NCBI GenBank assembly: GCA_034723315.1
Contig: JAYEOV010000035.1
Location: 8,329 to 72,328, forward strand
Direction: 5' to 3'
DNA: 64,000 bases
Origin: Candidatus Omnitrophota bacterium
GTDB taxonomy: Bacteria > Omnitrophota > Gorgyraeia > Tantalellales > Tantalellaceae
The translations under genes and the position numbers were made by a program. Shown in pieces: positions 39,085 through 58,819 of the stretch; within the stretch, counting starts at the first letter, position 1, and each line of letters starts with the position of its first letter. The notes beneath the pieces were generated by a model. That model was not told where the DNA came from, searched no databases, and was given only the letters and a program-made list of their open reading frames with translations.

Positions 39085-39486
39085 ACCTTTCAGAAATAGA
39101 ACACGTTTATTAAACCAGGTCCGATCTTATCAGGATTTCGCCGCGCTTACGTCAATTACCGAACCGGCCCAGGATTCCACCCATCTTGATATTTTTACGC
39201 CGAGAACTCCGGCCATTAAAAGCAGCACCTCTTTTTGGCTTCCGCGGGAGTGAGTCCTTCGGGGCTGCTTTCGAGTTGCTTGAGGACTTCTTCTTTTTCC
39301 AGAGAATGCCAGTTTACGGTTTTTTTGTCTTCCGCCATTTTCTCTTCCATTTTACGAAAATTATTTTTTAAATATTGTTTATATTATAATTAGTATAATT
39401 ATACAATATTTACTGCCTTTTCCAATTTTTATTTGTAAACTTATCCTGTGAACAAAATCCGGAGAACCCGGCACATGACCCGAGAC

Positions 39487-40386: not shown

Positions 40387-40407
40387 ACAAAATGGTATCT
40401 TTAGGGG

Positions 40408-40836
40408 TCAGACCCCTTTAAATTTCATAATGCTTATTCTTGAAGGGTCTTTGCACTTGTGGCGTTTTTTATGTTCGAGAGCTTCGGGCCCGGAGGCTAT
40501 TTCTTCGAATCCCGCTTTTCTGACGAATTCCGGCCTGTGTGTGACACCGTATATCTCTTTTCGCCCGTCCAGTCTTTTTGCCTCTTCGACAAGGAACTTA
40601 AGCAGTTTAATGCCTAAACCCTTCCGCCTGTGGTAATAATCAACGCCAAGGGAACCGATCTCAAAATAACCGCCGTGGTCGATTATCCTGCCGAAGGCGA
40701 CTGTCCTGCCGCAATTCTTCGCTACGAAGAACTTCTGCCAGGTCGCCCCGTCGGCGTCCAGGATATATTTCTGGAGCTTTTCCCGGATGTACGGCCAGTC
40801 TTTTTTTTCCGCGGGCTGTATCGTTATGTTATCCAT
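40408..40836 (-). CDS. GNAT family N-acetyltransferase
   Basis: HRRKGLGIKLLKFLVEEA acetyl-CoA binding motif. Confidence 0.7.
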   Translation of the reverse strand: MDNITIQPAEKKDWPYIREKLQKYILDADGATWQKFFVAKNCGRTVAFGRIIDHGGYFEIGSLGVDYYHRRKGLGIKLLKFLVEEAKRLDGRKEIYGVTHRPEFVRKAGFEEIASGPEALEHKKRHKCKDPSRISIMKFKGV

Positions 40837-40988
40837 ATTTCATCTTTCATAAAAGCCTCTTTCAAAACCCGGTATTAGAAATCAGGCGGGGAGTTTTTCG
40901 GAGATATCATAAAGAACGGCGATCATGAATTTTTTCATGTATTTTTCTCTTTTCTTATCAAACAATATTGCTCCCTTTCAGGGATGTC

Positions 40989-41243
40989 TTATGACCTCTC
41001 GCGTGATAGCAAGCTTCTCAGGTGATCGACAAAGGCTGCCAGACGCGATTTTGAATGCCTTACGGGCTTGTAAGACGCGCGGAATGCCTTTATCGCGGCA
41101 TAAATACCTGTCACGATACCAGCTGCTATAAAAATAAAACCGAAAATAAAGCGATCCCCCACAAGAAAGAACAGCCCCAGCATGTACAGCATGGCCGCGA
41201 TAAACGGAAAGTAACTTGCATATTTGTTCTTTTTATGAGACAT
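40989..41243 (-). CDS. Small membrane protein, hypothetical
   Basis: 84 aa, 2 TM helices. Confidence 0.3.
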   Translation of the reverse strand: MSHKKNKYASYFPFIAAMLYMLGLFFLVGDRFIFGFIFIAAGIVTGIYAAIKAFRASYKPVRHSKSRLAAFVDHLRSLLSRERS

Positions 41244-41420
41244 CTTTTTTAATATTAATAATAGTTATATACACCTTAAATAATATTATTATAGCGGCAT
41301 TTTCAAGTTTGACCACTGTGGGCCGTAGACAATTGACAATAGGCCGATCAGCGGGTCTTTTCTATTTCAAGTATTTCTACCGGTACGCCCCAGGAATGAA
41401 AAAGGAACTTTCTTTCTAGG

Positions 41421-41467
41421 CCCCGTTCGTTACGAGGCTGAGCGAAAAGGCCATTGACAAGGCCTGA
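41421..41467 (+). repeat. MITE core fragment (CCCCGTTCGTTACGAGGCTGAGCGAAAAGGCCATTGACAAGGCCTGA)
   Basis: Identical to the core of copies at 26489 and 48573; no TIRs. Confidence 0.5.
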
Positions 41468-41483
41468 CACCAATAAAATATTA

Positions 41484-42059
41484 TCAGAGACGGGGCCTGT
41501 GGCGCATTCTGCGCGTGGTCCCGGTACCGACTTGTTGTTGGGTTCCGTAATGGCCTCCGCCGTGGTAAGGGCCGCCTGCATATTCGCCGGCGGAATATAT
41601 GCCGGCGCTTTTATATAGATCTTTTAACTTTTCCAGCTGGTTTTTTGTGTATATTTTTATGAGCTTGTCGTGGACCGAGACGAGATACTGGCTTTTCTTT
41701 TTTTCCAGTTCGTGTTTTTGGGCTACAAGCGGGGTTATCATCTCGGTGTTCACGGGGACCTCCCACATCAGGGTGTTTATCTCAACCGTGAGCGTCTGAA
41801 TGTCGGCGTCCTGACGGATGAGGCTTTTACTTACCTCTTTTGACAGGTCTTTTATCTGCTTGACTTGTTCGTCCGAGAGCTCAAGCGCCATGCTGCTGTT
41901 CATGGCAAGGTTCACCTCGCTAAAGAACCTGTGTTCAAGGTCCTGCCCGGTTGATACGCCCGGACCATATCTGCCGGATTTTTGCGCGAGTGTTACACAC
42001 GTTCCGATAAAAAACATCATTGCGGTTAATACTAAGACTATTAGAACTCTCTTATTCAT
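41484..42059 (-). CDS. Periplasmic Spy/CpxP-like protein (weaker LTXXQ-like)
   Basis: Signal peptide, coiled coil, LSDEQ motif, Gly/His-rich C-terminus. Confidence 0.35.
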   Translation of the reverse strand: MNKRVLIVLVLTAMMFFIGTCVTLAQKSGRYGPGVSTGQDLEHRFFSEVNLAMNSSMALELSDEQVKQIKDLSKEVSKSLIRQDADIQTLTVEINTLMWEVPVNTEMITPLVAQKHELEKKKSQYLVSVHDKLIKIYTKNQLEKLKDLYKSAGIYSAGEYAGGPYHGGGHYGTQQQVGTGTTRRMRHRPRL

Positions 42060-42267
42060 AATCTCCCCTTTCGTCCCAAAATCTTAACGCGGACCGACCC
42101 GGTCGGACATGCCCGGGCCGCGCGATATTATTATATGTCATACTCTGGCAGGAGAAAACTTCTAAAATAGAAACAGCGCCAATTTTTTTTCTGGATTTAA
42201 ACCGTTCGTCGCTTTTACCCCGTTAGAGAAGCCTGCTCTGGGCTTCTCTAACGGGGTTCACCTGATT

Positions 42268-42606
42268 TCAATAAATTACAATAAAGGATTCAAATTCTCC
42301 GTTATAAGTCTCCCAGTTGATTTCCACGTTGTCAACACGCGCCATGGGCGGACCATGATAACACCAGTTTGTCATTTTATCTATATCTTCCTTTTTTCCT
42401 TCAAAAACCGCCTCTACCCTGCCGTCCCAGGAGTTCCTTACCCACCCTGTAATGAATAACGTCATGGCTTTTTCTTTTGTATAGCTCCTGAAAAAGACAC
42501 CTTGAACCAGCCCTGATAAAAATACATGCGCTCTTGCTTTAGCCATTTCTTTTGTTTTCGATAAATTAAATCCAAAAAAACTATCAATTACAATTTTATT
42601 ATACAA
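42268..42606 (-). CDS. acyP: Acylphosphatase
   Basis: VFLSGLVQGVFFRSY and GWVRNSWDGRVEAVFEG signature motifs. Confidence 0.7.
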   Translation of the reverse strand: MYNKIVIDSFFGFNLSKTKEMAKARAHVFLSGLVQGVFFRSYTKEKAMTLFITGWVRNSWDGRVEAVFEGKKEDIDKMTNWCYHGPPMARVDNVEINWETYNGEFESFIVIY

Positions 42607-42656
42607 TAATCTTTTTTATAAAAAAGCCAATTTTAACCTTTATTATTATTGACTAT

Positions 42657-42838
42657 AACCCCGTTCGTTACGAGGCTGAGCGAAAAAAGCATTGACAAGG
42701 CCTGAGGGGTGGAGCCCCGCGGACTGAAGTCCACGGCTCCTTTTTCTGCGGGATCTCACCTGTAGGGCGAAATCCCGAAAACGCAGCCAATGGGTTTTGC
42801 AGCCAGCCGCAGTAAAACAGGGTTATGAAATGGGTTCT
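42657..42838 (+). mobile_element. MITE-like element copy (left TIR missing, right TIR intact)
   Basis: Core CCCCGTTCGTTACGAGGCTGAGCGAAAAAAGCATTGACAAGGCCTGAGG, GC-rich hairpin insert, right end TTTTGCAGCCAGCCGCAGTAAAACAGGGTTATGAAATGGGTTCT. Confidence 0.55.
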
Positions 42839-43069
42839 AAAGAAGAACTGGAGAATATCTTTGACAAGCACAAAAAACTTTACACGGCTAAAGAAAAACT
42901 GGGGCCTGGACTTGCGATCATACAGGATATTGTGAACATGCACAAAGGAAAAATCTGGGCCGAAAGCAACCCCAAGAAAGGTAACAGGTTTATTGTAGAA
43001 CTCCCCAAAAACATAGCATCAAAAAGCTGCGCCCTTAAGTGGATTCACTCCTCGTCGTCCACTTTATAA
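42830..43069 (+). pseudogene. Sensor histidine kinase C-terminal fragment (HATPase_c G2 box only)
   Basis: ...ELENIFDKHKKLYTAKEKLGPGLAIIQDIVNMHKGKIWAESNPKKGNRFIVELPKN; begins exactly at the ATG within the MITE right TIR; the rest of the kinase is absent. Confidence 0.5.
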
Positions 43070-43734
43070 CCGATGCCTCTCACGTTCTTGATAAGCTTGC
43101 TCGTCTTACCGAGTTTCTCCCGCAGATGTCGTATATGGACGTCAATGGTGCGTGTTATCACCACTTTCTCTTCACCCCACAGGTAATCCAGGATCCTGTC
43201 CCGCGTGAAAACCTGTCCTTTCCTTGAACAGAGCAATTCCAATATCTTAAATTCCGTAGGGGTAAGAGCTACTTTCTTTCCTTCGGCTGTTACCTGATAT
43301 TTCTGTTGATCTATTACCAGCAAATCACTTATATTGATCACTTTAGGCTTTTCTTCCGGTTCCAGCCTTCTCAGGACCGCCTTTATCCTTGCCCCCATCT
43401 CTTTCAATGAAAAAGGTTTAACTATATAGTCGTCGGCTCCGATCTCAAGGCCCAGGACCTTGTTGGTCTCCTCGTCCCTGCCTGAAAGGATTATGATGGG
43501 TATAGTGGAAAGTTCCTCCTTAACCTTCAATAACCTGCATATCTCAAAACCGTCCATTTCGGGCAGCATCAGGTCAAGGATAATAAGATCGGGTTTTTTT
43601 GTTTCCAGGAAATTGAACAGGCTATGTCCTTCCAGAAATCCTTTGACCTTGAACCCCTCGTCGGTAAGATATTCCGTCACCATATTTACTATAGCGTGTT
43701 CGTCATCCACTATAACTATCAGTTTTTTGTCCAT
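43045..43734 (-). CDS. OmpR-family DNA-binding response regulator
   Basis: REC domain (DDEH...DLIILDLMLP), winged-helix C-terminus (VFTRDRILDYLWG...). Confidence 0.85.
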   Translation of the reverse strand: MDKKLIVIVDDEHAIVNMVTEYLTDEGFKVKGFLEGHSLFNFLETKKPDLIILDLMLPEMDGFEICRLLKVKEELSTIPIIILSGRDEETNKVLGLEIGADDYIVKPFSLKEMGARIKAVLRRLEPEEKPKVINISDLLVIDQQKYQVTAEGKKVALTPTEFKILELLCSRKGQVFTRDRILDYLWGEEKVVITRTIDVHIRHLREKLGKTSKLIKNVRGIGYKVDDEE

Positions 43735-43770
43735 ATCACTTCTTTCGGTATGGCTATTATTTTATCTGTT

Positions 43771-43980
43771 TTAGGTCTTCTTTCTGATCAAAGATTCAAT
43801 TACCCTTACAAGCAAATACAAAGAAAGAGAACAAAAGATCCCTTTTGCAAGGAAATACCAGGCAACCGCATCGTTTGAAAACTCACCCTTAAAAACACCG
43901 TTGCCGAGCAGGAAGGAATAAACGCATATAAGAAAAACGGCCACCGCCGCAGCATCCACTAATGCCTTTTTCTTTTTCAT
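43771..43980 (-). CDS. Small membrane protein, hypothetical
   Basis: 69 aa, 2 TM. Confidence 0.3.
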   Translation of the reverse strand: MKKKKALVDAAAVAVFLICVYSFLLGNGVFKGEFSNDAVAWYFLAKGIFCSLSLYLLVRVIESLIRKKT

Positions 43981-44227
43981 CTTCTCACCCCGGACTCAAA
44001 AAAATCAAGAAAATAAAGCCCTGAAAAGAGGGGCTTATGGACCACTTTTACGATGATATTAAGGGTAGAGATCTCCTTATTACATTTTCTATTGAGTATA
44101 AGGAAATCTTGTGCCAAGTCAAGGTAAAGCAGGGATTACTGGTGTCAAAGATTATGTGTACTTTCATATTAACAGATCCCAGCCGGAGTTTATCCCCGTA
44201 AAAGCAGGGGAGGGAATAACAGAGTAT

Positions 44228-44767
44228 TCATTCCTGCCTCGCCTGATCCTCTTTGTCGATCTTGTCCAGCTCTTTCTTTATCGCCTGCATCGCCTGAATG
44301 GTCTTGCCAAGCTTATCGCTTATATCCCTGGTCAATTCAGCCTTTTCCTGCTCTGTTGCCGGCACACCGCCTGCCGCGCCCCCGGTTATTTTCCGCACTT
44401 TCCGCCATATCCTGACCATTTTCGCCGTTATCTTTGCATAATTCTCGCTCCAGCCCTTCTCGCCGGCAGCCGGTGCCTTTACACCGCCTTTCGGCGCAGC
44501 CTTCTCAGCTGGCTGAATGTCCTTGACCTCCTCTTTTATCACCTGGAGTATCTTTATGGTCGTATCTATCTTCTTGTCAAGGTCTTTTGACCATACTGTT
44601 TCTTCACCCGCGGTATTCTCCTGTTTCTCGTCCCCACCGACTGCGGCGTAAAGCGGCCCAACGCTTATAAACAACACGAAGATGCTCAGCATCGTCATTA
44701 TCGTCGTGCGCCTGCCTCGAGCGAAGTCAAGGGGTATTGCGTATATTGTATTGCGTTTTTTATTCAT
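44228..44767 (-). CDS. Hypothetical secreted/anchored coiled-coil protein
   Basis: N-terminal hydrophobic segment, Lys/Glu-rich coiled coil. The track ORF start (44809) lies inside the family-2 repeat, so an internal Met is preferred. Confidence 0.35.
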   Translation of the reverse strand: MNKKRNTIYAIPLDFARGRRTTIMTMLSIFVLFISVGPLYAAVGGDEKQENTAGEETVWSKDLDKKIDTTIKILQVIKEEVKDIQPAEKAAPKGGVKAPAAGEKGWSENYAKITAKMVRIWRKVRKITGGAAGGVPATEQEKAELTRDISDKLGKTIQAMQAIKKELDKIDKEDQARQE

Positions 44768-44791
44768 CGTAAACCTCATTGTTTTGTTAAA

Positions 44792-44905
44792 AATATATTC
44801 TGGGGACATGCCTGGGCGAGCAAAATTAGCGTCTACAACAGGCGTGTCCCCGGAACTTCATCAATGCCATAGTGTCGTCTGCAACAAGCGTGTCCCCAGA
44901 ACTTC
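44792..44905 (-). repeat. Structured ~110-bp repeat element (family 2), copy 2 (inverted relative to copy 1)
   Basis: ATATATTCTGGGGACATGCCTGGGCGAGCAAAAT...CAACAGGCGTGTCCCCGGAACTTC...CAACAAGCGTGTCCCCAGAACTTC. Confidence 0.5.
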
Positions 44906-44948
44906 CTGAGCATAGCCGAAGGGTCAGTCGCGTAAGCCATGCGCTCAT

Positions 44949-45455
44949 TTAACTTGTTATTCTGTAAATCACTATCGAAAGCATGGCAAAGGCTATCACC
45001 AGTTTAGCCGCTATTGACCCTAACCTTCCCAGGACCCCTCCCGTACCTGCCTTCATTGACTTGATCAGATCCCTCTGAAGAATCAATTCTACCAGAAAAG
45101 CGCCTAGAAAAATACCCAAAAATGTTCCTGCGATCAGCCCAACTCCAAAAAATGCCGTTCCCGCAACCGCTCCGAGAACACCGCCAATAATGGCCCCAAA
45201 AACAGCCGCGTTGGATGCCCCCAGATTCTTGGCGCCCAGAACAATAAAAACGTATTCCAGGACCTCGCCAAAAAGGTATAAAGCGCACAGGATCACAAGT
45301 ACTTTCAGTGTGATAACTGAAAATCCTGTCATCAGCGCGTAAAGAATTGTGCCGACCAAGATCAACAGGGTCCCGAACGTAGTGAAGAAGATGGCGATAA
45401 TACCGGCCAATGTGAATATCAACAATACTGATAAGGCCAGAATATTCATGATCAT
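44949..45455 (-). CDS. DUF456 family membrane protein
   Basis: 168 aa Gly-rich polytopic membrane protein with the DUF456-like pattern. Confidence 0.55.
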   Translation of the reverse strand: MIMNILALSVLLIFTLAGIIAIFFTTFGTLLILVGTILYALMTGFSVITLKVLVILCALYLFGEVLEYVFIVLGAKNLGASNAAVFGAIIGGVLGAVAGTAFFGVGLIAGTFLGIFLGAFLVELILQRDLIKSMKAGTGGVLGRLGSIAAKLVIAFAMLSIVIYRITS

Positions 45456-45482
45456 GATCCGGTACCCTTATATCCCCATTAT

Positions 45483-45839
45483 TTAAACGAATATCAGCAT
45501 CAGGCCGATCGCAAGAAAAAGTATGGCCCAGATCCTGAAAAAAATCAGAGGCCTGTCCGCCAACCATGTGGCTATCTTTAACGATGCCTTCGAAGTCAGC
45601 AGCATTATCGCTTTTATCGTTATTATCATCCCGATTATCCCAACCACCTTCGCAGACAATCCCGGGGCTTTGATCACGCTGCCGATCATGAGAAAACCGA
45701 ATACAATCACAAAGACGTAAACGACTCGCTTTGTCCTTCGGCCCATTTTTCTCTTAAGCCGGTCTTTCAAGGTCTGCGGCCTTACCAGCCAGAATGCACC
45801 AAGAACGATCCATATCGCGCCAAGTATCTTAGAAAGCAC
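45483..45839 (-). CDS. Small membrane protein, hypothetical
   Basis: 118 aa, 3-4 TM. Confidence 0.35.
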   Translation of the reverse strand: MLSKILGAIWIVLGAFWLVRPQTLKDRLKRKMGRRTKRVVYVFVIVFGFLMIGSVIKAPGLSAKVVGIIGMIITIKAIMLLTSKASLKIATWLADRPLIFFRIWAILFLAIGLMLIFV

Positions 45840-45849
45840 TTATTACTCC

Positions 45850-47061
45850 TTAACGGTTATTTCCCTCGGGGACTTTTCTTGTAATTAATATTCCCGCAAT
45901 GATGAAAACGGTCTGTATGAGCATAGCGACCCTGTATTTAGATGCTCCCATAAAACCGAAGACAAGGATCGATAGCCCCCAGATAAGCGGCCCCAAAATA
46001 GCGGAAGACTTTCCGACCAGCCCGAGAAGGCCGAATATCTCGCCCAGCTTTTCCTCCGGACAGAGCTTTACCGCCAAAGCGCGGCTGGTTGTCCAGACCG
46101 AACCAAGGGCCACTCCGATCAACGGTCCGACGATCCAGAACATTATTCTGGAAAAAGCGCAAGCTGCCAGGACAAGACACACGAACCATAAAAACAAGGA
46201 GATCATAAGGGACCTTTTCGCTCCTAGCCTGTCCGCCATGAAGCCGAAAAAGAGCGATCCGAATATGGCCATTACAGTTGAAAAAAGAAACAGGGCTATC
46301 AGCTCACTGTCGCTGAACAGCGCAACTTTCTTCATATATACCGACATGAACACGATAAGAGTATTCACGGCGTTGAGGAATAAAAAGGCCCCCAGAAGGA
46401 ACAGTAACAGCCCCGGGTATCGGTCCCGGTTTGAAAACGTCTCTTTTATGCGGGATACTACATTCCCCATACGGAATTTATCCGCAGGCCTCTTAACAGC
46501 ACTTTCTTCTCTAACCAGGAAAAAGCATGGCAGCGAAAATATGAAAAAAAGCACCGCCGTCGGGACAAAAGCTGCCTGGTGGCCGTACCTTATGACAAAA
46601 GGCCTGGTAATGAGCATACCGACAATAGCGCCTACATAACCGAACCCTGTTCCCAGGCCGGATACCCTGCCGATCTCATTATGGCCACATATCCTCGGGA
46701 GCATCGCATTATAGAAGATGGTCGCTACCTGGTAGAAAAGATTGGCCATGAAAAATATGAGAAGACCCGAGAAAACATCTTTTGCCAACCCGAGAAAAGC
46801 CGTAAAGGCGCATGCAAGAACCGTGAAAAACACAAGAAAAGGTATCTTTCTTTTGAAAATATCGGAAACCGCGCCCAAAAACGGTTCCAGGAGAGCCGCC
46901 ATCAAGAGCGAACCGGACAGCGTTATACTGTAGAATATGTCCTCCCTGCCCTTGTCCACTGTTACCCAAAGGACAAAATACAGGGATATCACGTTCATTG
47001 AAAAGATCGTGTTGGCAAAATCGTATAAAGCCCAGCCGAAAACAGGCAATCTTTTACGCAC
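45850..47061 (-). CDS. MFS transporter
   Basis: 403 aa, 12 TM, MFS motif A-like GRVSGLG. Confidence 0.7.
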   Translation of the reverse strand: MRKRLPVFGWALYDFANTIFSMNVISLYFVLWVTVDKGREDIFYSITLSGSLLMAALLEPFLGAVSDIFKRKIPFLVFFTVLACAFTAFLGLAKDVFSGLLIFFMANLFYQVATIFYNAMLPRICGHNEIGRVSGLGTGFGYVGAIVGMLITRPFVIRYGHQAAFVPTAVLFFIFSLPCFFLVREESAVKRPADKFRMGNVVSRIKETFSNRDRYPGLLLFLLGAFLFLNAVNTLIVFMSVYMKKVALFSDSELIALFLFSTVMAIFGSLFFGFMADRLGAKRSLMISLFLWFVCLVLAACAFSRIMFWIVGPLIGVALGSVWTTSRALAVKLCPEEKLGEIFGLLGLVGKSSAILGPLIWGLSILVFGFMGASKYRVAMLIQTVFIIAGILITRKVPEGNNR

Positions 47062-47418
47062 TTTAAACCTCCTGCATAATCAATTATCCTATCTCTTGTT
47101 TATCTTGTCAAAGAACTTCTTACAGATCCCCGCTTTCCCTGAGGGCCTCTGGCCTCAGGATTTCTTGGCCAACACTATAACTCCAATGCCAAGGCCCCTT
47201 TTGTGCGCGCCTCGGGTGCTCGCACGGTGTCCTCGGGCCTTCGCCCTCGGTCACGCGGGAATGACACTGAGGAAAGTGCCGACAATATGTTACACTATCC
47301 TTTTACAGATTTCTCGACTCGCCCCTATTGGTATCAGGTGTCAGGGCTCTATAAAAAAAAGGGGACGAAACCCTATTTTTTAAATAGGATTCCGTCCTTT
47401 TTTTTCAAACCATCGATC

Positions 47419-47796
47419 TTATGCTTCGACCTTTTTGTCGATAAGGAATAACTCCTCGACGTTCTCCTCCGCCCAGCCGAGGCTATAACCGGGTCTTCCG
47501 GGCTCGCTTGACATATCCGGTCTTTCCGGGGCATCCTCTATGGCGGGTATTTCCGGGTTGCCCTCTGTCCAGGGGACCGAAGGAAGACATGCTATAGCTT
47601 CTTTCTGGAAGGCAAACGTCCTGTTATATTCGTCATACAAAACATCATTCTCGAACCAACCTATATGCTTTCCCCCAAGCGAATAGACATTATTATTCAC
47701 CAACCAGCCAAGGTTTTTTCCTTCCCTGCTGATAAAGCGGTCTTCATAAAGAAAAAGGCAAGGGTTTCCCTTTCTGTTGAAAAGCCACTCAGCCAT
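47419..47796 (-). CDS. Hypothetical protein with repeated G-x-H/N-[IL]-GW beta motifs
   Basis: GKNLGWLVNNNVYSLGGKHIGWFENDVLYDE repeats; no confident family. Confidence 0.35.
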   Translation of the reverse strand: MAEWLFNRKGNPCLFLYEDRFISREGKNLGWLVNNNVYSLGGKHIGWFENDVLYDEYNRTFAFQKEAIACLPSVPWTEGNPEIPAIEDAPERPDMSSEPGRPGYSLGWAEENVEELFLIDKKVEA

Positions 47797-48029
47797 TTCA
47801 CCCTCCTCACTGGTTAGAACTCAATCCGTGACTTTATAAAAGTCGAAAAAATGATAATATATAAATCTTTTAACCATATTAATAATAGCATATATTAATT
47901 AATTTTTATATATAATTTAGCTAATTTTTGGTTAACTTTTGGTGTGAAGATCACAGGCGGGAAACAAGTGCCGAAAGCATTTTCGATTATATCGTATGTC
48001 GTATTGCGTTTTTTTCTTTTTATTTTTTT

Positions 48030-48581
48030 TTATATATTACGCCCCTCTTTTTTGGCCTTTATATATTCCGGAGGCACATTTTTTGCAAGGAATAGTTTTC
48101 CTTCCCTGTAGAACTTTATATCTTTAAGGGCCGCCTCTTTTGCCATTACCTCCAGAATAACCGGAGTCTGAGCATGCCGCATGCCGACCATGTATGCATC
48201 TTTCTCGTTCGAGCTGAGATGGACGAACTGCCTGCTCATGGGCTTCAGGCCTTCTGCAAGAATCTTTTCAAGATCTTCCGGAGATGTTCCGTGATAGAGA
48301 ACTTCCGGAGGTATTATACTTTCCGAGCCGGGCCGGACTTCGAGGGAATGGCCGTAAGTGGCCCTTATCTTTTTTGCCGAGACCTCAAAACGCCCTTTCG
48401 GTTCATTTTTTACGAGTTCAAAAAGGTCCTCTTCCTTAAACTTCCTGAATCTTTTCCTGAGGACCCGCAGGACATCGGCTAACGGGGCGTACCCACACCC
48501 GTCCAGCTCAAGATCCCAGCTGCCGGGATCATGACGAAGTATATATGACAGGAACTTGCTCAGTTTTATCTTAGAAACCAT
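48030..48581 (-). CDS. kptA: RNA 2'-phosphotransferase KptA/Tpt1
   Basis: SKFLSYILRHDPG...LDG.GYA N-terminus, YHGTS, VHLS motifs. The start codon lies inside the MITE left TIR. Confidence 0.75.
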   Translation of the reverse strand: MVSKIKLSKFLSYILRHDPGSWDLELDGCGYAPLADVLRVLRKRFRKFKEEDLFELVKNEPKGRFEVSAKKIRATYGHSLEVRPGSESIIPPEVLYHGTSPEDLEKILAEGLKPMSRQFVHLSSNEKDAYMVGMRHAQTPVILEVMAKEAALKDIKFYREGKLFLAKNVPPEYIKAKKEGRNI

Positions 48582-48752
48582 TTCATAACCCGGTTCGTAA
48601 CGAGGCTGAACGAAAAAGTCATTGACAAGGCCTGAGGGGCAAAATGCCCGGAAACGTAGCCGGTGCGCTACGTTGAGGACATTTTACCCCGAAAACGCAG
48701 TCAATGACTTTTGCAGCCAGCCGCAGTAGAACGGTGTTATGAAATGGTTTCT
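48573..48752 (+). mobile_element. Complete MITE-like element (180 bp) with 17-19-bp terminal inverted repeats
   Basis: Left AGAAACCATTTCATAACCC; right GGTGTTATGAAATGGTTTCT; core GGTTCGTAACGAGGCTGAACGAAAAAGTCATTGACAAGGCCTGAGGGGCAAAATGCCCGGAAACGTAGCCGGTGCGCTACGTTGA. Confidence 0.65.
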
Positions 48753-48921
48753 ATAGCTTGACACCTTGCCGTCTACCATCTGCTGGCCGCACGTCCTGCT
48801 ACATTGCTCGGCCAATTTTGTCAAATGTTGACAGGCTGACCAGGAATATAAATTTTCAAAAATTAGATATTAAAAATAAAGGACTTACAACAATAATCTA
48901 TTCGAAAAAGGCTATTCTCGG

Positions 48922-50445
48922 TCAGCCTGTTGAGCCCTGACCCCCTAATGGGGAGACGGTGATCGCCCTCGCCGGACGGACGGGACATTTCGTCTGGCAT
49001 ATCCCGCAACCGATACAAAGATCCGGATCTACAACCGGTCTTCTTACTGACCGGCCGCCTATATTGAATTCTTTTATCCGTATAGCTTTTTCAGGGACCG
49101 GACAATGTTCTTCACAGATCAGACATTCGGCGTTCCAGACCCATGCTATGCAGCTCGACCGGTCCACGTTCGCGACACCGAGTTTTGTTTTTTTCTTCTC
49201 TTCAAGCTTAAGCCTCGGAATCGCTCCGGTTGGGCACGCACTGCCGCAAAGAATGCAGTTGTATTCACAATACCCTATTTCGGGAACGAGATGCGGCGTC
49301 CAGATCCCCTCCAGCCCGGCCTGGAACATCGCAGGCTGAAGCCCGTTGGTCGGACAGACCTTCATACAGTTCCCGCAACGCACGCAACGGCTTAAGAACT
49401 CATCCTCCCTCAAGGCCCCGGGCGGTCTTATAACCGGAGACGCGTTTTCCTTCTTTTTACCCCACTTGAATCCCGACACGAACACAGAGGAAAAGACCAT
49501 AAAGAGAAACTCCCGTCGGGATATCCCCCTCTTGCCGTTTTCATCCTTTTTCAACACCGATGATCGTCCCGCGGGAAAAAACGTGAATCTTGTACCTCCA
49601 TGGAGGCAATCGTACACGCAGTCCATGCAGAGAATACATTCGCCCTTAACATAGCTGTTGTCGTCATTTATGGCCCCCATCCGGCAGTTCCTAACGCATT
49701 CTCCGCAAGAGACGCACTTATCTGCAACCCGCCGTAAAACAGCGAATCTCGAAACAACCGAATAAAAAGCTCCCAGAGGGCAAATGAAGCGGCACCATAA
49801 CCTTGAGACAAGAAGAGCCGTGATACATATTAAAACGAAAAACACGAATATTATTCCCGAATTCGCGAAATAATGCGCTTTTACGCCCAAGAAAGACATC
49901 TTAAGAGAACTATAAAGATCTTGTACCGGCCCGTACAGGTTGAGATCCCGTATCAAAAACACGAAAAATCTGTCTGTCACGGACGTAAAGGCCGGTATAA
50001 GGTTCAACGAAACGAAACGCGCCATTATCACCATCGGATCAAGCACCCACGCGGCCTGCACACCGAAAAGGGCGCTAACGAGAACCGCCCCCAGTAAAAA
50101 GAACTTGATCTTACGCAACTTCGCGCCGGCGCGCCCTTTTACCGGTATTTTCTTTTTTCTTGCAGCGCCCGTAAGGTCTATGACCGTTCCCAGGGGGCAC
50201 ACCCACCCGCAGTAGAATCTGCCAAGGAACAACGTAAGAACCAGCATTCCCAGACAAACGGCCAGTCCCGGCAGAAACAGCCGTTCGCTTACGGAAGTGA
50301 ATATCACTATGTTGGGGTTTGTCCTGAAAAACGTTTCCGGCGGCAGGATGCCCTTCAATGGATACGTCGTCGACCAGAGTATATATACGAAAAGCAGCAG
50401 GAAAAAAGCCTGTGAAGATCTCCTCAGAATTATCAGCTTTTTCAT
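48922..50445 (-). CDS. Membrane-bound polyferredoxin (NapH/MauN-like TM domain + multiple 4Fe-4S ferredoxin domains)
   Basis: Two CPLG(T/A) motifs in the TM region (GWVCPLGT, RFICPLGA), then 6-7 CxxCxxCxxxCP clusters. Confidence 0.65.
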   Translation of the reverse strand: MKKLIILRRSSQAFFLLLFVYILWSTTYPLKGILPPETFFRTNPNIVIFTSVSERLFLPGLAVCLGMLVLTLFLGRFYCGWVCPLGTVIDLTGAARKKKIPVKGRAGAKLRKIKFFLLGAVLVSALFGVQAAWVLDPMVIMARFVSLNLIPAFTSVTDRFFVFLIRDLNLYGPVQDLYSSLKMSFLGVKAHYFANSGIIFVFFVLICITALLVSRLWCRFICPLGAFYSVVSRFAVLRRVADKCVSCGECVRNCRMGAINDDNSYVKGECILCMDCVYDCLHGGTRFTFFPAGRSSVLKKDENGKRGISRREFLFMVFSSVFVSGFKWGKKKENASPVIRPPGALREDEFLSRCVRCGNCMKVCPTNGLQPAMFQAGLEGIWTPHLVPEIGYCEYNCILCGSACPTGAIPRLKLEEKKKTKLGVANVDRSSCIAWVWNAECLICEEHCPVPEKAIRIKEFNIGGRSVRRPVVDPDLCIGCGICQTKCPVRPARAITVSPLGGQGSTG

Positions 50446-50505
50446 CCTATATCTCCACCCCGCGATGAATCAGGGGGGTCATGAATCAGGAACAATAATA
50501 TACCA

Positions 50506-50524
50506 GGGTTATAAAATTGGTTCT
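50506..50524. repeat. Degenerate solo MITE right TIR (GGGTTATAAAATTGGTTCT)
   Basis: 15/19 match to GGGTTATGAAATGGGTTCT; overlaps the stop of the malic enzyme gene. Confidence 0.3.
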
Positions 50525-51800
50525 AATAGGTCGGGATCTCCTTAAGCCCGGCCACACCTTCTTTTATGGCGGCTTCAGCTACCGCCTTTGACTCCCATTC
50601 TTTTATCCTGGGATCAAAAGGTGTCGGGATCAGATAATCCGGGGCGAACTCAAAGTTCCTGCCGTAAGCGGTCTTTACTTCTTCGGGAATATAACTCTCA
50701 CGCGCAAGAGCCGCAAGAGCCTCCGCTGCAGCTATTTTCATGCCCATAGTTATTTTTTTCGCCCGGACGTCAAGGGCCCCACGGAATATGAAGGGAAAGC
50801 CCAGAACGTTATTTATCTGGTTCGGAAAATCAGACCGCCCTGTCGCCAACACGTACTTTCGGCCTTTCATGCATTCTGCGACATCCTGCGGCATTATCTC
50901 AGGGACCGGGTTGGCCATCGCGAAAATGGCCGGATAATCGGACATCGAAAGGACCATCTCGGGCCTCACGCATCCAGCGACCGATACGCCGATGAAGACG
51001 TCCGCGCCGGCCATCGCGTCCGCAAGCGTCCTCTTTGCGGTATCAATCGCATGCGGTCTCTTATACTTATTGAGGTCCTCTCTGTTTTTACTCAGCACGC
51101 CTTTTGAATCACATAGAATACAATCCCTGACCCCGTCGGTTTTTATCATCTCGGCTATCCTCAGGCCCGCCGCCCCCGCGCCGTTTATCACTACTGAAAG
51201 GTCCCCCGCCTTCTTGCCGGAGAGCTTGCTATAGTTCTTGAGAGCCGCCAGGGTGATTATGGCTGTGCCCCACTGGTCATCGTGGAACACGGGTATGTCC
51301 AGCATCTCGTCAAGCCGGTCTTCTATCTCAAAACAGGCCGGTGCGGCGATATCTTCCAGATTGATCCCCCCGTACATGCCCGCTATTTTAACAGTAGTAT
51401 CTATGAACTTTTCTATATCCGTGCGCCCGTCCGGGCCCAGTACGCCTTCAAGAGGAACTGGCCAGCCGTCAACCCCGGCAAAGGCTTTGAAAAGAACGGC
51501 TTTACCTTCCATTACCGGTATGGACGGTCCGGGGCCGATATTTCCAAGACCCAGCACTGCCGTGCCGTCGGTAATTACAGCCACGAGATTCCCCTTCGCG
51601 GTCAGAGAATAAGCAAGGTTCTCGTCCCCTGCGATAGCTTCGCATATTTTTGAAACACCGGGAGTATAGGCCATGCTGAGATCTTTCTGATCGGTAAGTT
51701 TCTTCAGGAGTTCCAGACCGATCTTCCCCCCCATATGATATTCAAATACCTCTTCTTCTGTTATGATTAATTTATTCTGTTCCAAGTTGATACCTTTCAA
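50523..51800 (-). CDS. NAD(P)-dependent malic enzyme (short form)
   Basis: LSMAYTPGVSKICEAI, dinucleotide fold GAGAAGLRIA, 425 aa. Confidence 0.8.
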   Translation of the reverse strand: MKGINLEQNKLIITEEEVFEYHMGGKIGLELLKKLTDQKDLSMAYTPGVSKICEAIAGDENLAYSLTAKGNLVAVITDGTAVLGLGNIGPGPSIPVMEGKAVLFKAFAGVDGWPVPLEGVLGPDGRTDIEKFIDTTVKIAGMYGGINLEDIAAPACFEIEDRLDEMLDIPVFHDDQWGTAIITLAALKNYSKLSGKKAGDLSVVINGAGAAGLRIAEMIKTDGVRDCILCDSKGVLSKNREDLNKYKRPHAIDTAKRTLADAMAGADVFIGVSVAGCVRPEMVLSMSDYPAIFAMANPVPEIMPQDVAECMKGRKYVLATGRSDFPNQINNVLGFPFIFRGALDVRAKKITMGMKIAAAEALAALARESYIPEEVKTAYGRNFEFAPDYLIPTPFDPRIKEWESKAVAEAAIKEGVAGLKEIPTY

Positions 51801-51839
51801 ATAAATACAGGGCCCGGGTTAACCCCGACGGCTGCCGCC

Positions 51840-52118
51840 TTATGATCCGGTGACGCTCCTGTACGAGCAGCCGGGCCTCAAAGCGCCTTTTGCTATATGT
51901 TCCCGGATAGGAACGCAATTAAAAGCCTTTCCGGAAACCGTTTCCCTCCGGCCAAAGCGTTTATCATATATCATGCAGAAATATGTCCCGTTATCCAGCT
52001 TAACCAGATCCCGACAGGGATCATCAAGCGCCCCGCAGCATTGACCGCACCTCCCGCAAAGTTCATCGAACTTTTTTTCTTTTTCGAGCGAATATTTTTC
52101 GTAATTTAACGAATCCAT
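51840..52118 (-). CDS. YkgJ-family (UPF0153) Fe-S/zinc cysteine-cluster protein
   Basis: CGRCGQCCGAL cysteine cluster, 92 aa. Confidence 0.45.
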   Translation of the reverse strand: MDSLNYEKYSLEKEKKFDELCGRCGQCCGALDDPCRDLVKLDNGTYFCMIYDKRFGRRETVSGKAFNCVPIREHIAKGALRPGCSYRSVTGS

Positions 52119-52216
52119 TCCTCTTCGCCGTAATAATGCATTAAAAGGACCTGAAACATGTCACCTGATGCCTGGAACAGGACTCTGCGGGTCTTTATTC
52201 CTGGAATGTTCCGGAG

Positions 52217-52447
52217 CTACGGAAGATGCTGCCGCGCCTTGTTTCCCCTTACCAGCTGACGGGCGATGTAGCCGATAAGCACTATAATGTAGAATATGAG
52301 TATAATGAAAAGGACGGCAGCTGCTATTGAAAGAAGTATTGAGCTTATTCCGATAAGTATCGGCCAGGTCAGAAGAACGATCCCTATAATTACCAGCGAC
52401 ATTATAACTATCGCGAGTCCTATAAAAAAATCTTTCAGCGTTTGCAT
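52217..52447 (-). CDS. Small membrane protein, hypothetical
   Basis: 76 aa, 2 TM. Confidence 0.3.
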   Translation of the reverse strand: MQTLKDFFIGLAIVIMSLVIIGIVLLTWPILIGISSILLSIAAAVLFIILIFYIIVLIGYIARQLVRGNKARQHLP

Positions 52448-52700
52448 AGCCCTCCTCCCAACCTGGATGAGCCAGAACCAAAAAGGGATAAGGGATGTTC
52501 TGGCTCATCCATGTTGGTATATTGAAACCGTGCGAGCCCTATGGGCTATAAGAAGGTTCCCCGGCCCAAAGCTATGACTCAGCGGCCGGGAAAACCTACG
52601 GTTTTCAAACTTTCCTTTACAGAATTTTCGCAAAGTTGAGTTCTAAAAATATTGTTGCAACCAATTCATCATAACGGAATTTCAATAAAAAGGGGGATTT

Positions 52701-52722
52701 TAAGGGGGCAAAGCCCCCTTGC
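52701..52722 (-). terminator. Candidate rho-independent terminator
   Basis: GGGGGCAAAGCCCCC hairpin followed on the minus strand by a T-rich tract. Confidence 0.4.
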
Positions 52723-52771
52723 CATAAATTAAGCGCACCATGCAGCTCCAAAGTTGCGCGAAGCGCTTAAT

Positions 52772-53158
52772 TTATCCCGATATAAGAGCCTTTATCTCTT
52801 CTTCCGTCATGTCCTTTTTTCTGAGGAAACATATCCCGACATCATATGATTTGCCGGGCTCCCCCTCTGCAATACGGACCACGCGGCCGAAGATCCCGCT
52901 GTTGTGAATGATCAGATCGTCTTCTATCTCAGCGCATATGTTCATCATGCGATCGTCCAGCTCCAGCCAGACGATACTTGACAGCGCCGGTATGGAAAAC
53001 TCCGTGGATGTCCTGAAAAGCAGACCGCACGCGCTGATGTTTCGTGACGATATATCGGACTTCTGCGCGAGTTTATCTCCTGTAAGAACTTTACAATTCA
53101 AAGGTTTCTCATAATCGACCCTGAGAAATTCCCGTTTTTCTTCAAAGTCAGCATTCAT
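52772..53158 (-). CDS. PilZ domain c-di-GMP-binding protein
   Basis: REFLR (RxxxR) and NISACG (D/NxSxGG) motifs. Start is reassigned to MNADF (SD AGGAGGA 7 nt upstream), 1 nt after the LOG stop; track ORF 52772..53197. Confidence 0.6.
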   Translation of the reverse strand: MNADFEEKREFLRVDYEKPLNCKVLTGDKLAQKSDISSRNISACGLLFRTSTEFSIPALSSIVWLELDDRMMNICAEIEDDLIIHNSGIFGRVVRIAEGEPGKSYDVGICFLRKKDMTEEEIKALISG

Positions 53159-53159
53159 C

Positions 53160-53822
53160 TTATAATCCTCCTGTCTTGTCATAGAATTTATCCACATAAT
53201 CGACTATCTTCTTTGGATCGTCTATTACCGTGAATAGTTTCATGTCGTTTTCGTCTATGGCTCCGAGCTTCATACAGGAGCTTTTCAGCCAGTCCAGCAT
53301 TCCTTTCCAGTAGGCCTTGCCTACAAGGACCACGGGAAAAGGTTCCATCCTCTCGGTCTGTATCAGGGCAACCATTTCAAAAAATTCATCCAGGGTCCCG
53401 AACCCGCCTGGAAAGGCTATAAACGCTTTGCTGTACTTCGCGAACATCAATTTACGCACGAAGAAATACCTGAACTCCAGGGGGATCGTAACGTACCTGT
53501 TGAACTTCTGTTCAAGAGGTATGGTTATATTGAGCCCTATCGATTCCCCGCCGGCCTTCTTCGCGCCCATATTGGCCGCTTCCATGATCCCCTCCCCGGC
53601 CCCGGTGAGAACCGCGTATCCGTCTTTAGCGAAAAGCTCGGCGGTCTTTCTCGCCATTGGATAATACTTATGGGACTTTTTCAGACGGGACGAGCCGAAT
53701 ATGCTAACAGCCTTCCCTATGCTTCTCAGGGACTCGAAACCGTCGACGAACTCGCTCATTATCCGGAACACCCGCCAGGGTTCTTCAATGGGATGATCGT
53801 GCATTATACTTTTTTCTTTCAC
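53160..53822 (-). CDS. LOG family protein (TIGR00730; cytokinin riboside 5'-monophosphate phosphoribohydrolase-like)
   Basis: AVSIFGSSR and PGGFGTLDEFFE motifs. Confidence 0.75.
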   Translation of the reverse strand: MKEKSIMHDHPIEEPWRVFRIMSEFVDGFESLRSIGKAVSIFGSSRLKKSHKYYPMARKTAELFAKDGYAVLTGAGEGIMEAANMGAKKAGGESIGLNITIPLEQKFNRYVTIPLEFRYFFVRKLMFAKYSKAFIAFPGGFGTLDEFFEMVALIQTERMEPFPVVLVGKAYWKGMLDWLKSSCMKLGAIDENDMKLFTVIDDPKKIVDYVDKFYDKTGGL

Positions 53823-54042
53823 GCCTACCTCTCCTTCTGACTTTATGAAGTGATTATATTATATATAATTCTGCGCGAAATTCATACTTATTTTGAAAAA
53901 ATCAGGATCCGAGGGATATCTTTCTCTTGTATAAGACAGGTCATATGTTTGCAAAATAAAGGGCTAATACCCGTGTCCTTCCCGCAGGATCACGGATACA
54001 GGCCGGATTATCCTCAGGGCCATTAGAACTCCGGATTATCCC

Positions 54043-56271
54043 TTATTTTTGCAATCTCGATGGAATAGCATTCCTCCAGGTATCACTTAAAGCAGCTAAA
54101 GTCAGGTCTATTACTGTTGTCTGCCCGAATCGAACAGTAAGCTTTTCCCCTCCGACCTTACCCAGAACACTGTATTGAACAGAATGCTTTTTTGCTATGT
54201 TTTCCAGGTCTGCAAGTCCATCCTTGCCAACGGATACCACTATCCTCGACGGCGCTTCACCGAAAAGAACAGCATCTTTTCTAATACCTTCGTCTATTTT
54301 TATTTCCGCGCCCAGCATTCGACCCCTGTCAGCTATGCACGATTTGGACAGAGCCACGGACAAGCCGCCCTTTGAGCAGTTATGAGCAGAATTGATGATG
54401 CCTGACTCGATTGCCTCAAGGCATGTCTTCTGGACCGCTATTTCCCTGGTCATATCTATCCGGGGATCTCCTTTTTTCAGTTCATGGACCAGATATAGAT
54501 ATTCGCTGCCCGAAAGATCGTCGGTGTTTTCACCCAGAAGAACTATTATGTCGCCTTCATTCTTAAAATCCCGGGTCACATACCTGTCCGCGTCTTCTAT
54601 GAGCCCGACCATCCCGACCATCGGCGTTGGGTCCACTGCCCCCTTCGGGTTTTCATTATAGAAGCTGACGTTGCCGCTAATAACGGGAGTTCCCAAAGCT
54701 TCACATGCTGCCGAAAGCCCCTCTATGCATTTTTTAAACTGCCAGTAATTTTCGGGTTTCATTGGGTTGCCGAAATTCAGGCCGTCCGTAATGGCGAGAG
54801 GCCTCCCGCCTGCACAGGTTATATTCCTCGCCGCCTCAGCTACAGATATCATGGCGCCATTGTAAGGATTTAAATAACAATACCTGCCATTGCAGGTCAC
54901 GCTAATTGCCAGGGCCTTCTTCGTTCCTTTGACCCTGACAACGGCAGCGTCCGAACCCGCGCCTGCCAGCACTCTGTCCTTATCCATGAAGGTGAACTTT
55001 TCATGCATCGATTCTTTGCTTGCAACAGTCGGAGAATCCAGCAGCTTCAATATCACCGCGTTAAAATCATCCGGCTCTTTGATAGAACCTTGATCCAGAT
55101 TTTTGGTCTCTTTCAGGTATGCCGGCTCTTTTGTTTCTCTTTCATAAAGCGGAGCTTTTTTTGTAAGCGCCTCGGCCGGGACCTCGCAGACCACAACGCC
55201 GTTCTCTTTTACCCTCATTATGCCGTCATCGGTGACTTTACCTATCTGAACCGCATTAATATCCCACTTTTTCATTATGCCAAGGGCCTCTTCCTGCCTG
55301 TCGCCCTTTAAAATAACAAGCATCCTCTCCTGTGATTCCGACAGCAGAATCTCATAAGGCGTCATGCCTCTTTCCCTCTGGGGCACAAGAGATACATCTA
55401 TCTCAATGCCGGTCCCGCTTCTTGTAGCTGTTTCACATGAAGAACAGGTAAGTCCAGCTGCTCCCATATCCTGCATCCCGACAACAAGACCTTTTTCGAT
55501 CAACTCAAGGCAAGCTTCCCTTAAACGTTTCCCGAGTTCCGCATCCCCTATTGCGACCGCATTTTCTATCGCGGCAGACTCCTCGGTTATCTCCTTCGAA
55601 GCAAAACTTGCTCCTCCTACGCCGTCTCTGCCCGTATCTCCACCGATGTAATACACGGGGTTCCCGACCCCGGAGGCGACGCCTCTTATGATATTTTCTT
55701 TCTTCACAACCCCTACGACGAAGGCATTAACAAGAGGATTGCCCTCATAGCTTTCATCAAAACAGGTATCCTCGCCGACCACGTTGACTTCCGCGACATT
55801 GGAGTAATGGGCCAATCCCCTGATGACCTCACTGAACAAGAATTTAACCCTGTCATTATCAAGATTTCCAAATCTTAACGCGCCAAGCCCCGCGATCGGC
55901 CTTGCCCCTATCGTAAATATGTCTCTGAGACAACCGCCTATGCCCGTAGCCGAGGCCTCGAAAGGCTCAACTGCAGATGGATGATTGTGAGACTCCATTT
56001 TGAATGCAACGCCTAAACCGTCCCCTATATCAACGATCCCACTGTTTTCCTCTCCTGCGCCGACCAACACCTGCCTGCCCTTCGTCGGAAACAGGCTGAA
56101 AAGCCTTCTTGAGTTTTTGTAACTGCAATGTTCTGACCACATTGCCGAAAATACGCCAAGTTCAGCAAAATTGGGGTCTCTGCCAAGTAATTTCTTTATC
56201 TCGTTAAACTCGGCCTCGGTAAGCCCCATCTCTTTAGCCAGTTCCACATTGACCTTAATAGCTGTCGTCAT
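54043..56271 (-). CDS. purL: Phosphoribosylformylglycinamidine synthase subunit PurL (FGAM synthase II)
   Basis: 742 aa; N-terminus MTTAIKVNVELAKEMGLTEAEFNEIKKLLGRDPNFAELGVFSAMWSEHCSYK typical of PurL. Confidence 0.9.
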   Translation of the reverse strand: MTTAIKVNVELAKEMGLTEAEFNEIKKLLGRDPNFAELGVFSAMWSEHCSYKNSRRLFSLFPTKGRQVLVGAGEENSGIVDIGDGLGVAFKMESHNHPSAVEPFEASATGIGGCLRDIFTIGARPIAGLGALRFGNLDNDRVKFLFSEVIRGLAHYSNVAEVNVVGEDTCFDESYEGNPLVNAFVVGVVKKENIIRGVASGVGNPVYYIGGDTGRDGVGGASFASKEITEESAAIENAVAIGDAELGKRLREACLELIEKGLVVGMQDMGAAGLTCSSCETATRSGTGIEIDVSLVPQRERGMTPYEILLSESQERMLVILKGDRQEEALGIMKKWDINAVQIGKVTDDGIMRVKENGVVVCEVPAEALTKKAPLYERETKEPAYLKETKNLDQGSIKEPDDFNAVILKLLDSPTVASKESMHEKFTFMDKDRVLAGAGSDAAVVRVKGTKKALAISVTCNGRYCYLNPYNGAMISVAEAARNITCAGGRPLAITDGLNFGNPMKPENYWQFKKCIEGLSAACEALGTPVISGNVSFYNENPKGAVDPTPMVGMVGLIEDADRYVTRDFKNEGDIIVLLGENTDDLSGSEYLYLVHELKKGDPRIDMTREIAVQKTCLEAIESGIINSAHNCSKGGLSVALSKSCIADRGRMLGAEIKIDEGIRKDAVLFGEAPSRIVVSVGKDGLADLENIAKKHSVQYSVLGKVGGEKLTVRFGQTTVIDLTLAALSDTWRNAIPSRLQK

Positions 56272-56384
56272 TGCTTACCCCCTAATGTTTCTTTTTCCCA
56301 TTCAACAGTAGTCATTAATTTTCAAAAGACATATTCAGTACACGAGACCCGATATTCATTTCCGGAAAAATCCGCGACTCGCAC

Positions 56385-57350: not shown

Positions 57351-57517
57351 TTTATTTCCTCCTTCTCGATTTTTTAAAAAAAAAGGCGCTCTTAACCATA
57401 AGGTTCAGAACGCCTTTGTCCTTCTCCGAATACTAACATTGTATCAGTAATTGTATTATGTACATTGTTACAGGATGTGTCAAGAAAAATCCTATTTCTA
57501 TCACATGTCAGTGGAAA

Positions 57518-58726: not shown

Positions 58727-58819
58727 AATATTTTCTCCGTTTCAAAGGTTTCCACGGGTTCTAGAAAATTATTATATTATTTTAGGAGCTGATTTGCAAT
58801 GTGAAATAGCCTCTATCGT

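Follow-up and report, generated by a model that had tools for sequence, protein, structure and literature searches.

Introduction

MITEAba12, an ISAba12-derived MITE (miniature inverted-repeat transposable element) of Acinetobacter, has an outward start codon in its terminal repeat that in some insertions gives neighboring coding sequences their first four residues, MQQS, and other insertions of it are fused to 3' ends and lead to premature stops (PMC6382973). It folds into weak hairpins (-24 to -27 kcal/mol), and a promoter that faces outward from it is supported by transcripts (PMC6382973). In a review by Delihas in 2011, in-frame fusions of small repeats with chromosomal open reading frames (ORFs), at either the 5' or the 3' end, were collected, and REP2 of Neisseria was presented as a cassette that carries an ATG together with a ribosome-binding site (PMC3184786). 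Here, we describe a MITE (copy A) at the 5' end of kptA (tpt1), the gene for RNA 2'-phosphotransferase, in a 64,000-nucleotide stretch of contig JAYEOV010000035.1 from a Candidatus Omnitrophota bacterium. The whole of this stretch is called the window, and all coordinates refer to it unless a locus is named.

The kptA element and MITEAba12 are both bacterial MITEs with an outward-read start codon in the terminal repeat; at kptA, the start codon of a conserved gene lies inside this repeat. However, MITEAba12 belongs to the ISAba12 lineage, whereas the kptA element appears to be IS427-like and is found in another phylum. Furthermore, the kptA element forms a very stable hairpin, shows no outward promoter and leaves a displaced start that can be reconstructed. 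REP2 is a complete expression cassette without terminal inverted repeats. In contrast, the kptA element is a classic MITE with terminal inverted repeats and a target-site duplication, which interrupts an existing gene and provides just the start codon, preceded by a weak Shine-Dalgarno match. The Correia elements of Neisseria and the enterobacterial ERIC elements are MITE-like repeats that are co-transcribed with genes, and their long hairpins affect mRNA processing and expression. Those cases concern the structure of untranslated regions and processing by RNase III or RNase E, unlike the replacement of a start codon at kptA.

Starts donated by terminal repeats are already known from MITEAba12, and the kptA case presents no new mechanism. 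What it adds is that the pre-insertion allele can be read from the same sequence. Both parts of the interrupted N-terminus remain legible, which allows a reconstruction of the event down to single nucleotides, and kptA is an unusually clean natural case of a transposable element replacing a start codon.

The kptA ORF Starts within a MITE Terminal Repeat

The translation of the kptA ORF opens with MVSKIKLSKFLSYILRH... and was assigned, from its sequence, to the Tpt1/KptA family. PF01885 matches with an E-value of 1.3e-38 over residues 4-160 (profile positions 3-168 of 177), which corresponds to a full-length domain. The NCBIfam RNA 2'-phosphotransferase models also match, and solved Tpt1 structures match at an E-value of 4e-36, with the alignment beginning at residues 3-6. 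In a comparison with 119 homologues, 45 of the 46 columns that are at least 90% conserved are kept. Every invariant Arg and His is retained (R16, H17, R64, R73, H78, H97, R117, H121 and R135). Directly 3' of the kptA stop codon lies an extremely AT-rich stretch (47850..47930).

The start ATG lies within the element proper, 6-8 nt from its end. The element contributes codons 1-2 and the initial two bases of codon 3, and the TA then makes up the last base of codon 3 and the opening base of codon 4. In gene orientation, the junction reads ATG GTT TC/T A/AG ATA AAA CTG, where the slashes enclose the TA. The initial annotation had placed the beginning of the ORF at an ATG in the left repeat of a MITE, with no other in-frame ATG for about 110 codons. 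Both points are confirmed by the sequence: the ORF begins at 48581..48579, and no in-frame ATG, GTG or TTG occurs ahead of codon 115. The comparison with orthologues that it had called for also places the N-terminus of KptA here, one residue shorter than the modal form. A 100% identical 183-amino-acid protein from a Candidatus Omnitrophota metagenome-assembled genome (MAG) is present in NCBI nr, annotated 'RNA 2'-phosphotransferase'. Thus, the public annotation already takes the repeat ATG as the start.

The two arms of copy A (48572-48596 and 48729-48753) form 25-nt terminal inverted repeats that are 92% complementary. The left arm reads TAGAAACCATTTCATAACCCGGTTC on the forward strand, and the outer part of the repeat, at 48573..48591, is AGAAACCATTTCATAACCC (reverse complement GTTATGAAATGGTTTCT). 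A second, internal inverted repeat of 46 nt lies between the arms. TA is present at both ends as expected for a target-site duplication, and the 182 bp contain neither an ORF of the element's own nor a transposase gene. As RNA, the element is predicted to fold into one long hairpin of -112.3 kcal/mol (z -8.4). By its inverted repeats, TA duplication, small size without a transposase and occurrence in several copies, copy A is a bacterial MITE.

Modeled Removal of the Element Restores the N-Terminus of KptA

Excision was modeled by deleting 48574..48753 (the element and one TA). The excised allele reads ...CAG CAG ATG GTA GAC GGC AAG GTG TCA AGC TAT AAG ATA AAA CTG AGC AAG TTC... with an uninterrupted frame, and it translates continuously as ...QQMVDGKVSSYKIKLSKFLSYILRH. 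The empty-site junction predicted in this way is GGCAAGGTGTCAAGCTATAAGATAAAACTGAGC. With the GTG at 48764 as the start, the allele encodes (M)SSYKIKLSKFLSY; an alternative native start is the upstream ATG at 48779 (MVDGKVSSYK...). Compared with the reconstructed (M)-S-S-Y-K-I-K-L-S-K-F, the present N-terminus, M-V-S-K-I-K-L-S-K-F, has Ser in place of Tyr and is one residue shorter. The replaced residues fall where the KptA family is variable.

The closest orthologues (57-69% identity, mostly from Omnitrophota) start with MTIYKTRLSKF, MTIYSVKLSKF, MFDYRIKLSKF and similar sequences, and their modal N-terminus is MxxY[RK]I[RK]LSKF. N-terminal positions were counted in the 37 closest orthologues in which the SKFLS motif was found. 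Met lies exactly 8 residues ahead of the Ser of SKFLS in 22/37 of them, Tyr occupies position -5 in 22/37, and Arg or Lys occupies position -4 in 33/37. The reconstructed allele with the GTG start has both the Met position and the Tyr at -5 of this modal architecture. The 5' ends of P0002 and P0003 read ATG ACN ATT TAC AAG/AGT. By a simple-counting estimate, the chance of an in-frame start at the orthologous position together with a TA that completes the Tyr codon is about 0.003.

Since excision restores both the frame and the modal N-terminus, we conclude that the MITE inserted at codons 4/5 of kptA, displacing the native start and changing MSSY to MVS. The case for kptA is stronger than the initial annotation had stated, because the native start and the first four codons are still recognizable beyond the element. 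No insertion-free allele was found in the protein collection, where the best match had 69% identity and the P0001 cluster had 1 member; the empty site was not searched for at the DNA level. Look-ups of exact matches to three proteins, namely KptA, the Fe-S protein encoded upstream and the 125-aa ORF downstream, gave no hit.

Table 1. Features of the kptA locus, of the related repeats in the window and of repeat-bearing loci elsewhere
Feature	Position	Strand	Remark
MITE copy A, including the TA at each end (48572-48573, 48752-48753)	48572..48753	.	182 bp
Left terminal inverted repeat, GAAACCATTTCATAACCCGGTTC, with outward-facing ATG	48574..48596	.	copy A
Right terminal inverted repeat	48729..48751	.	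outward ATG at 48744 (+) opens just 5 codons
kptA/tpt1 ORF, RNA 2'-phosphotransferase	48030..48581	-	183 aa
Present kptA start codon, ATG within left repeat	48579..48581	-	
Displaced native 5' end of kptA, GTG TCA AGC TA	48754..48764	-	with TA, GTG TCA AGC TAT = (M)SSY
Residual upstream ORF from native ATG 48779 or GTG 48764	48684..48779	-	27-32 codons, stop TAA 48686..48684
Only sigma-70-like promoter match facing kptA, TTAATA-17-TATATT	48845..48873	-	consensus match; outside element, upstream of native start
Upstream Fe-S protein gene (Fer4_5/Fer4_7)	48922..50445	-	507 aa, same strand as kptA
MITE copy B	26489..26602	.	only the left half present; 92% identity with copy A
MITE copy C	33402..33695	.	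~128-bp internal insert, degenerate right repeat
MITE copy D	42655..42839	.	right repeat intact, outer 14 nt of left repeat missing
Internal MITE fragment	41421..41467		
Solo repeat ends	6951, 32273, 58906		
Solo repeat remnant	32273..32288	.	exact 16 nt
Anti-sigma (zf-HC2) ORF	32282..32767	-	ends ...TTG TTA TGA
ORF opened by copy D repeat ATG (42830)	42830..43069	+	79 codons, histidine kinase ATPase-domain C-terminal remnant
Repeat-bearing loci, Omnitrophota nzgw302	L009, L011, L017, L022, L026		
Repeat-bearing loci, Pirellulales	L019, L031, L032		
Repeat-bearing locus, Bdellovibrionales	L024		
Other repeat-bearing loci	L014; L033-L094		
Partial IS5-like copy	L060, ending at 213-232		ends in exact repeat TAGAAGCCATTTCATAACCCG, DUF4096 ORF ~70 nt inside
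IS630-family transposase gene	L060 223..1398		begins right at partial-IS end
Complete insertion sequence, TA flanks	L060 1396..2262		867 bp, repeats related to those of the MITE
rplU	L048		profile match from Met9
rlmK-like	L026		profile match begins near residue 48
lpxK	L073		Met33 by TIGR00682 and Aquifex structure; Pfam reaches residue 25

Proposed Expression from the Repeat ATG and Alternative Explanations

The best explanation of the locus is a MITE insertion into kptA, with the chimeric gene now expressed from the repeat ATG; we assign this reading a probability of about 0.6. A non-autonomous MITE of the IS5 family (IS427-like) transposed into the TA spanning codons 4 and 5 of kptA, and the native start (GTG 48764 or ATG 48779), the first four codons and the upstream region were parted from the gene by 180 bp. 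The family repeat ends in ...GGGTTATGAAATGGnTTC-TA, and its outward ATG fell in frame by chance. The sequence itself shows the element with its borders and TA duplication, the displaced 5' codons, the frame and the absence of another start; from it, we infer that KptA is still made from this ATG.

Transcription would begin upstream of the element, either at the promoter-like site (48873..48845) or as read-through from the Fe-S gene. Since the sole promoter-like site lies upstream of the element, the entire hairpin would be transcribed. In that transcript, the ATG would pair with the opposite repeat, so that initiation would depend on the opening of the hairpin. The most plausible opening would come from ribosomes that still start at the native site: by translating the residual ORF of 27-32 codons, they would pass through the 5' arm and free the 3' arm. 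The residual ORF covers almost all of the 5' arm, and the 3' arm alone is predicted to fold to just -36.9 kcal/mol. Alternatively, the hairpin may be opened by RNase III cleavage. Processing of the mRNA as in the Correia and ERIC cases is, by analogy, a speculation at kptA. GGGT (GGGU) 6 nt ahead of the repeat ATG is a weak Shine-Dalgarno match. The duplex energy is -3.7 kcal/mol for the repeat ATG and -3.6 for the native GTG, which are equally weak, and this comparison is uninformative.

Several observations weigh against expression from the repeat ATG. The start codon and the bases upstream of it are paired with the opposite repeat in the near-perfect -112 kcal/mol hairpin. The Shine-Dalgarno energy of -3.7 compares with a median of -2.9 for the window background, whereas many genes of the window reach -8 to -12, and many carry strong GGAGG sites. 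No promoter-like site facing kptA was found inside the element; indeed, neither an outward promoter nor a terminator was found in it. Any insertion has a 1/3 chance of bringing the ATG in frame. KptA is dispensable in bacteria where this has been tested. In addition, G154D (codon 48120..48122) is the sole deviation among the 46 conserved columns, at a position that is Gly in 96% of the 119 homologues. The substitution may be harmless, or it may be a sign that constraint was relaxed once the element had inserted.

An alternative, in our view less probable, is that kptA is a young pseudogene. The MITE would have removed the start and the expression signals, the ATG would have come in frame by luck (1/3), and the ORF would be intact only through lack of time to decay. 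The sequestered start, the weak Shine-Dalgarno match, the lack of a promoter within the element and a relaxed constraint at G154D would all fit this explanation. The displaced 5' piece of 11 nt remains perfect, as do the two copies of the TA, and this suggests that the insertion is young. Furthermore, the window's other in-frame case clearly belongs to a dead remnant of a kinase gene, and the repeat family shows no frame enrichment (both described below). However, over its 183 codons the ORF has kept 45/46 conserved columns and every invariant residue of catalytic type. The Shine-Dalgarno match of the native GTG was no better (-3.6), translation of the residual upstream ORF could open the hairpin, and selection for the gene would itself yield a surviving in-frame insertion. 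An expressed chimeric kptA is the reading that we prefer. A joint and more ambitious reading, in which kptA carries a coupled two-cistron switch and the family is more broadly a recurrent source of N-terminal replacements, is improbable. If it were true, translation of the residual ORF would unmask the repeat-borne Shine-Dalgarno-like sequence and the ATG on the 3' arm, and the outward GGGT-N6-ATG could make insertions in first codons survivable.

MAG contigs can be chimeric at repeats, and this allele is known from one genome. A repeat-induced misassembly, or a chance 'repeat', with a kptA 5' end that is not truly adjacent, is nevertheless hardly credible. The far flank carries the missing in-frame N-terminal codons, with the Tyr and the start at the orthologous positions, and the repeat family occurs in the window far above chance. 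On the upstream side, the conserved Fer4 neighbor follows: at the P0003 and P0002 loci, a Fer4_5 gene lies directly 5' of kptA on the same strand, as in the window. This conserved order argues against misassembly.

The Terminal Repeat Is Shared by MITEs of Several Phyla and Related to IS427

A genome collection and metagenome sequences were scanned with the pattern GKGTTATGAAATGGNTTCTA, which returned 24 and 62 loci, respectively. In the genome-collection scan, no returned locus had more than one match, and the source genome was not among the matches. The repeat TAGAAGCCATTTCATAACC, flanked by TA, caps MITEs of 45-351 bp (modes 80-83 bp) across several bacterial phyla. Five 83-bp copies occur in another Omnitrophota MAG, and the hosts also include Pirellulales, Planctomycetia, Phycisphaerales, Bdellovibrionales and an actinomycete MAG. 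TA was found at 98/101 family ends, although the search pattern forced TA at one end per element, and TA is followed by G or A in 79% of cases. The outward ATG is kept in the repeat across several phyla, with GGGT ahead of it at 6-nt spacing. The interiors of the MITEs differ between lineages, and the repeat alone is in common. These results point to a widespread IS427-type transposase group that mobilizes many independent MITE lineages, and they document an IS427-type terminal repeat in MITEs of Omnitrophota, Planctomycetota, Bdellovibrionota and other lineages.

The relationship to IS427 was seen at L060, a metagenome contig from another organism. The 867-bp insertion sequence (IS) there contains two overlapping ORFs, which cover positions 2-105 and 109-257 of the NCBIfam model transpos_IS5_3 (NF033580). 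These ORFs, split by a frameshift, match DUF4096 and DDE_Tnp_1. Members of the IS427 group of the IS5 family are 830-865 bp long, with a 2-bp direct repeat and two overlapping ORFs with a frameshift (PMC3281130). The 867-bp IS fits this group (IS1248, ISPaes1) in length, short repeats, 2-bp duplication and two frameshifted ORFs, whereas the element at kptA, a derivative of 182 bp, lacks a transposase. A plasmid-database search gave no match to a named relative of the 867-bp IS. Judging from these sequence matches, the terminal repeats of the MITE derive from the IS427 group of the IS5 family.

An origin from IS630/Tc1-mariner elements had initially been suspected because of the TA duplication. 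This origin was rejected, since the repeat in L060 bounds transposase genes of the IS5_3/DUF4096 type and the IS630-type transposase belongs to a separate, adjacent element. L060 1..2262 as a whole is a nest of insertion sequences, formed by the partial IS5-like copy, the IS630-family gene and the 867-bp IS.

General Donation of Starts or Stops by the Repeat Family Is Not Supported

The initial annotation had proposed that the element donates starts and stops to its neighbors as a property. Frames were examined at 102 non-redundant ends from all sequences, after removal of duplicates and of matches apparently inside unrelated coding sequence. Frames open for at least 100 codons from the junction numbered 9, 11 and 3 in frames 0, 1 and 2, and the corresponding numbers for at least 60 codons were 15, 15 and 17. 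Across these ends, the ATG frame (frame 0) has no excess of long ORFs. With no enrichment of the ATG frame and with downstream starts of their own in the candidates that were checked, the proposed general property was not supported.

As repeat-started genes, lpxK (L073), rplU (L048) and an rlmK-like gene (L026) were rejected, because the profiles match from their own downstream Met. The lpxK frame extends back to the repeat ATG without a stop over 32 codons, in which no other canonical start precedes Met33. Position 4 of the TIGR00682 profile corresponds to residue 34, and residues 9-11 of Aquifex LpxK correspond to residue 31. On this alignment evidence, lpxK appears ambiguous as a repeat-start case, leaning against. 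Automated gene prediction would probably carry this essential gene too far, into the element. Since gene callers take the repeat ATG and the element goes unnoticed, MITE-aware annotation is needed for uncultured phyla. At L073 89..268, a 165-bp MITE directly precedes lpxK, and a gene in divergent orientation starts at a distance of 14 nt from it. The L037 (HIBADH-like) and Flavobacteriia matches were set aside as apparent chance similarity inside coding motifs, judged by eye. The other long frame-0 ORFs looked, on eye inspection only, like chance or non-coding matches.

Two further junctions in the window had been named in the initial annotation. The repeat ATG of copy D does open the ORF that had been described as a kinase fragment. 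Its product, however, is a pseudogene remnant that matches positions 51-110 of the 111 in the HATPase_c profile only, next to a copy with a lost left end, and no 5' part of the kinase was found beyond copy D. On the opposite strand, the gene for an OmpR-type response regulator (43045..43734) is intact; the remnant converges on it and overlaps it by 25 nt. This regulator may have been orphaned by a deletion that took the 5' part of the kinase and the left end of the MITE. The stop codon of the anti-sigma gene was correctly located in a solo repeat: the TGA at 32282..32284 falls inside the exact 16-nt repeat.

It has also to be considered whether the repeat is a selected, portable translation-start module, in which a weak Shine-Dalgarno match and the outward ATG would systematically allow insertion at the 5' ends of genes and donate starts, as well as stops, to neighbors. 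The outward ATG is conserved across phyla with GGGT at 6-nt spacing, and coding sequence occurs at three junctions within one 64-kb window. Against these points stand the frame counts at both thresholds, the downstream Met starts of lpxK, rplU and the rlmK-like gene, the apparently chance nature, by eye, of the L037 match and the remnant state of the kinase ORF. Moreover, binding by the transposase is a simpler reason for conservation of the repeat, and the complete IS in L060 has no ATG at its left end. We regard such a module as very unlikely. The survey of ends gives no sign of start or stop donation as a selected property of the family. With kptA as the one clear case, start donation looks like an occasional accident; at kptA, it is the accident of a single insertion and not a built-in function of the element.

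Other Copies and Solo Ends in the Window

The 16-nt core of the repeat, GTTATGAAATGGNTTC, occurs 7 times in the window with at most 1 mismatch, against 0.00 expected, and a repeat 17-mer occurs 10 times with at most 3 mismatches, against 0.28 expected. This recurrence is far above expectation, and the terminal repeat is thus not a chance match. Relatives of copy A were located by BLAST of the element against the window (Table 1). Altogether, the 64 kb contain four long elements, whole or fragmentary, together with several solo repeat ends. Nearly all complete ends adjoin TA, and the repeats of the window are a MITE family with a 2-bp TA duplication. No autonomous copy of the element was found in the 64 kb. 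In addition, no Rfam family, tRNA included, reached its gathering score anywhere in 1..64000.

The insert of copy C (33449..33576) is about 128 bp long and rich in GC and in short palindromes such as CCCCGGCTTTAGCCGGGG, and it may represent another small repeat that is nested inside the MITE. At the solo end at 6951..7000, the palindrome CCCCGTTAGAAAATAATTATTCTAACGGGG follows directly after the repeat, and its hairpin consists partly of inner repeat bases.

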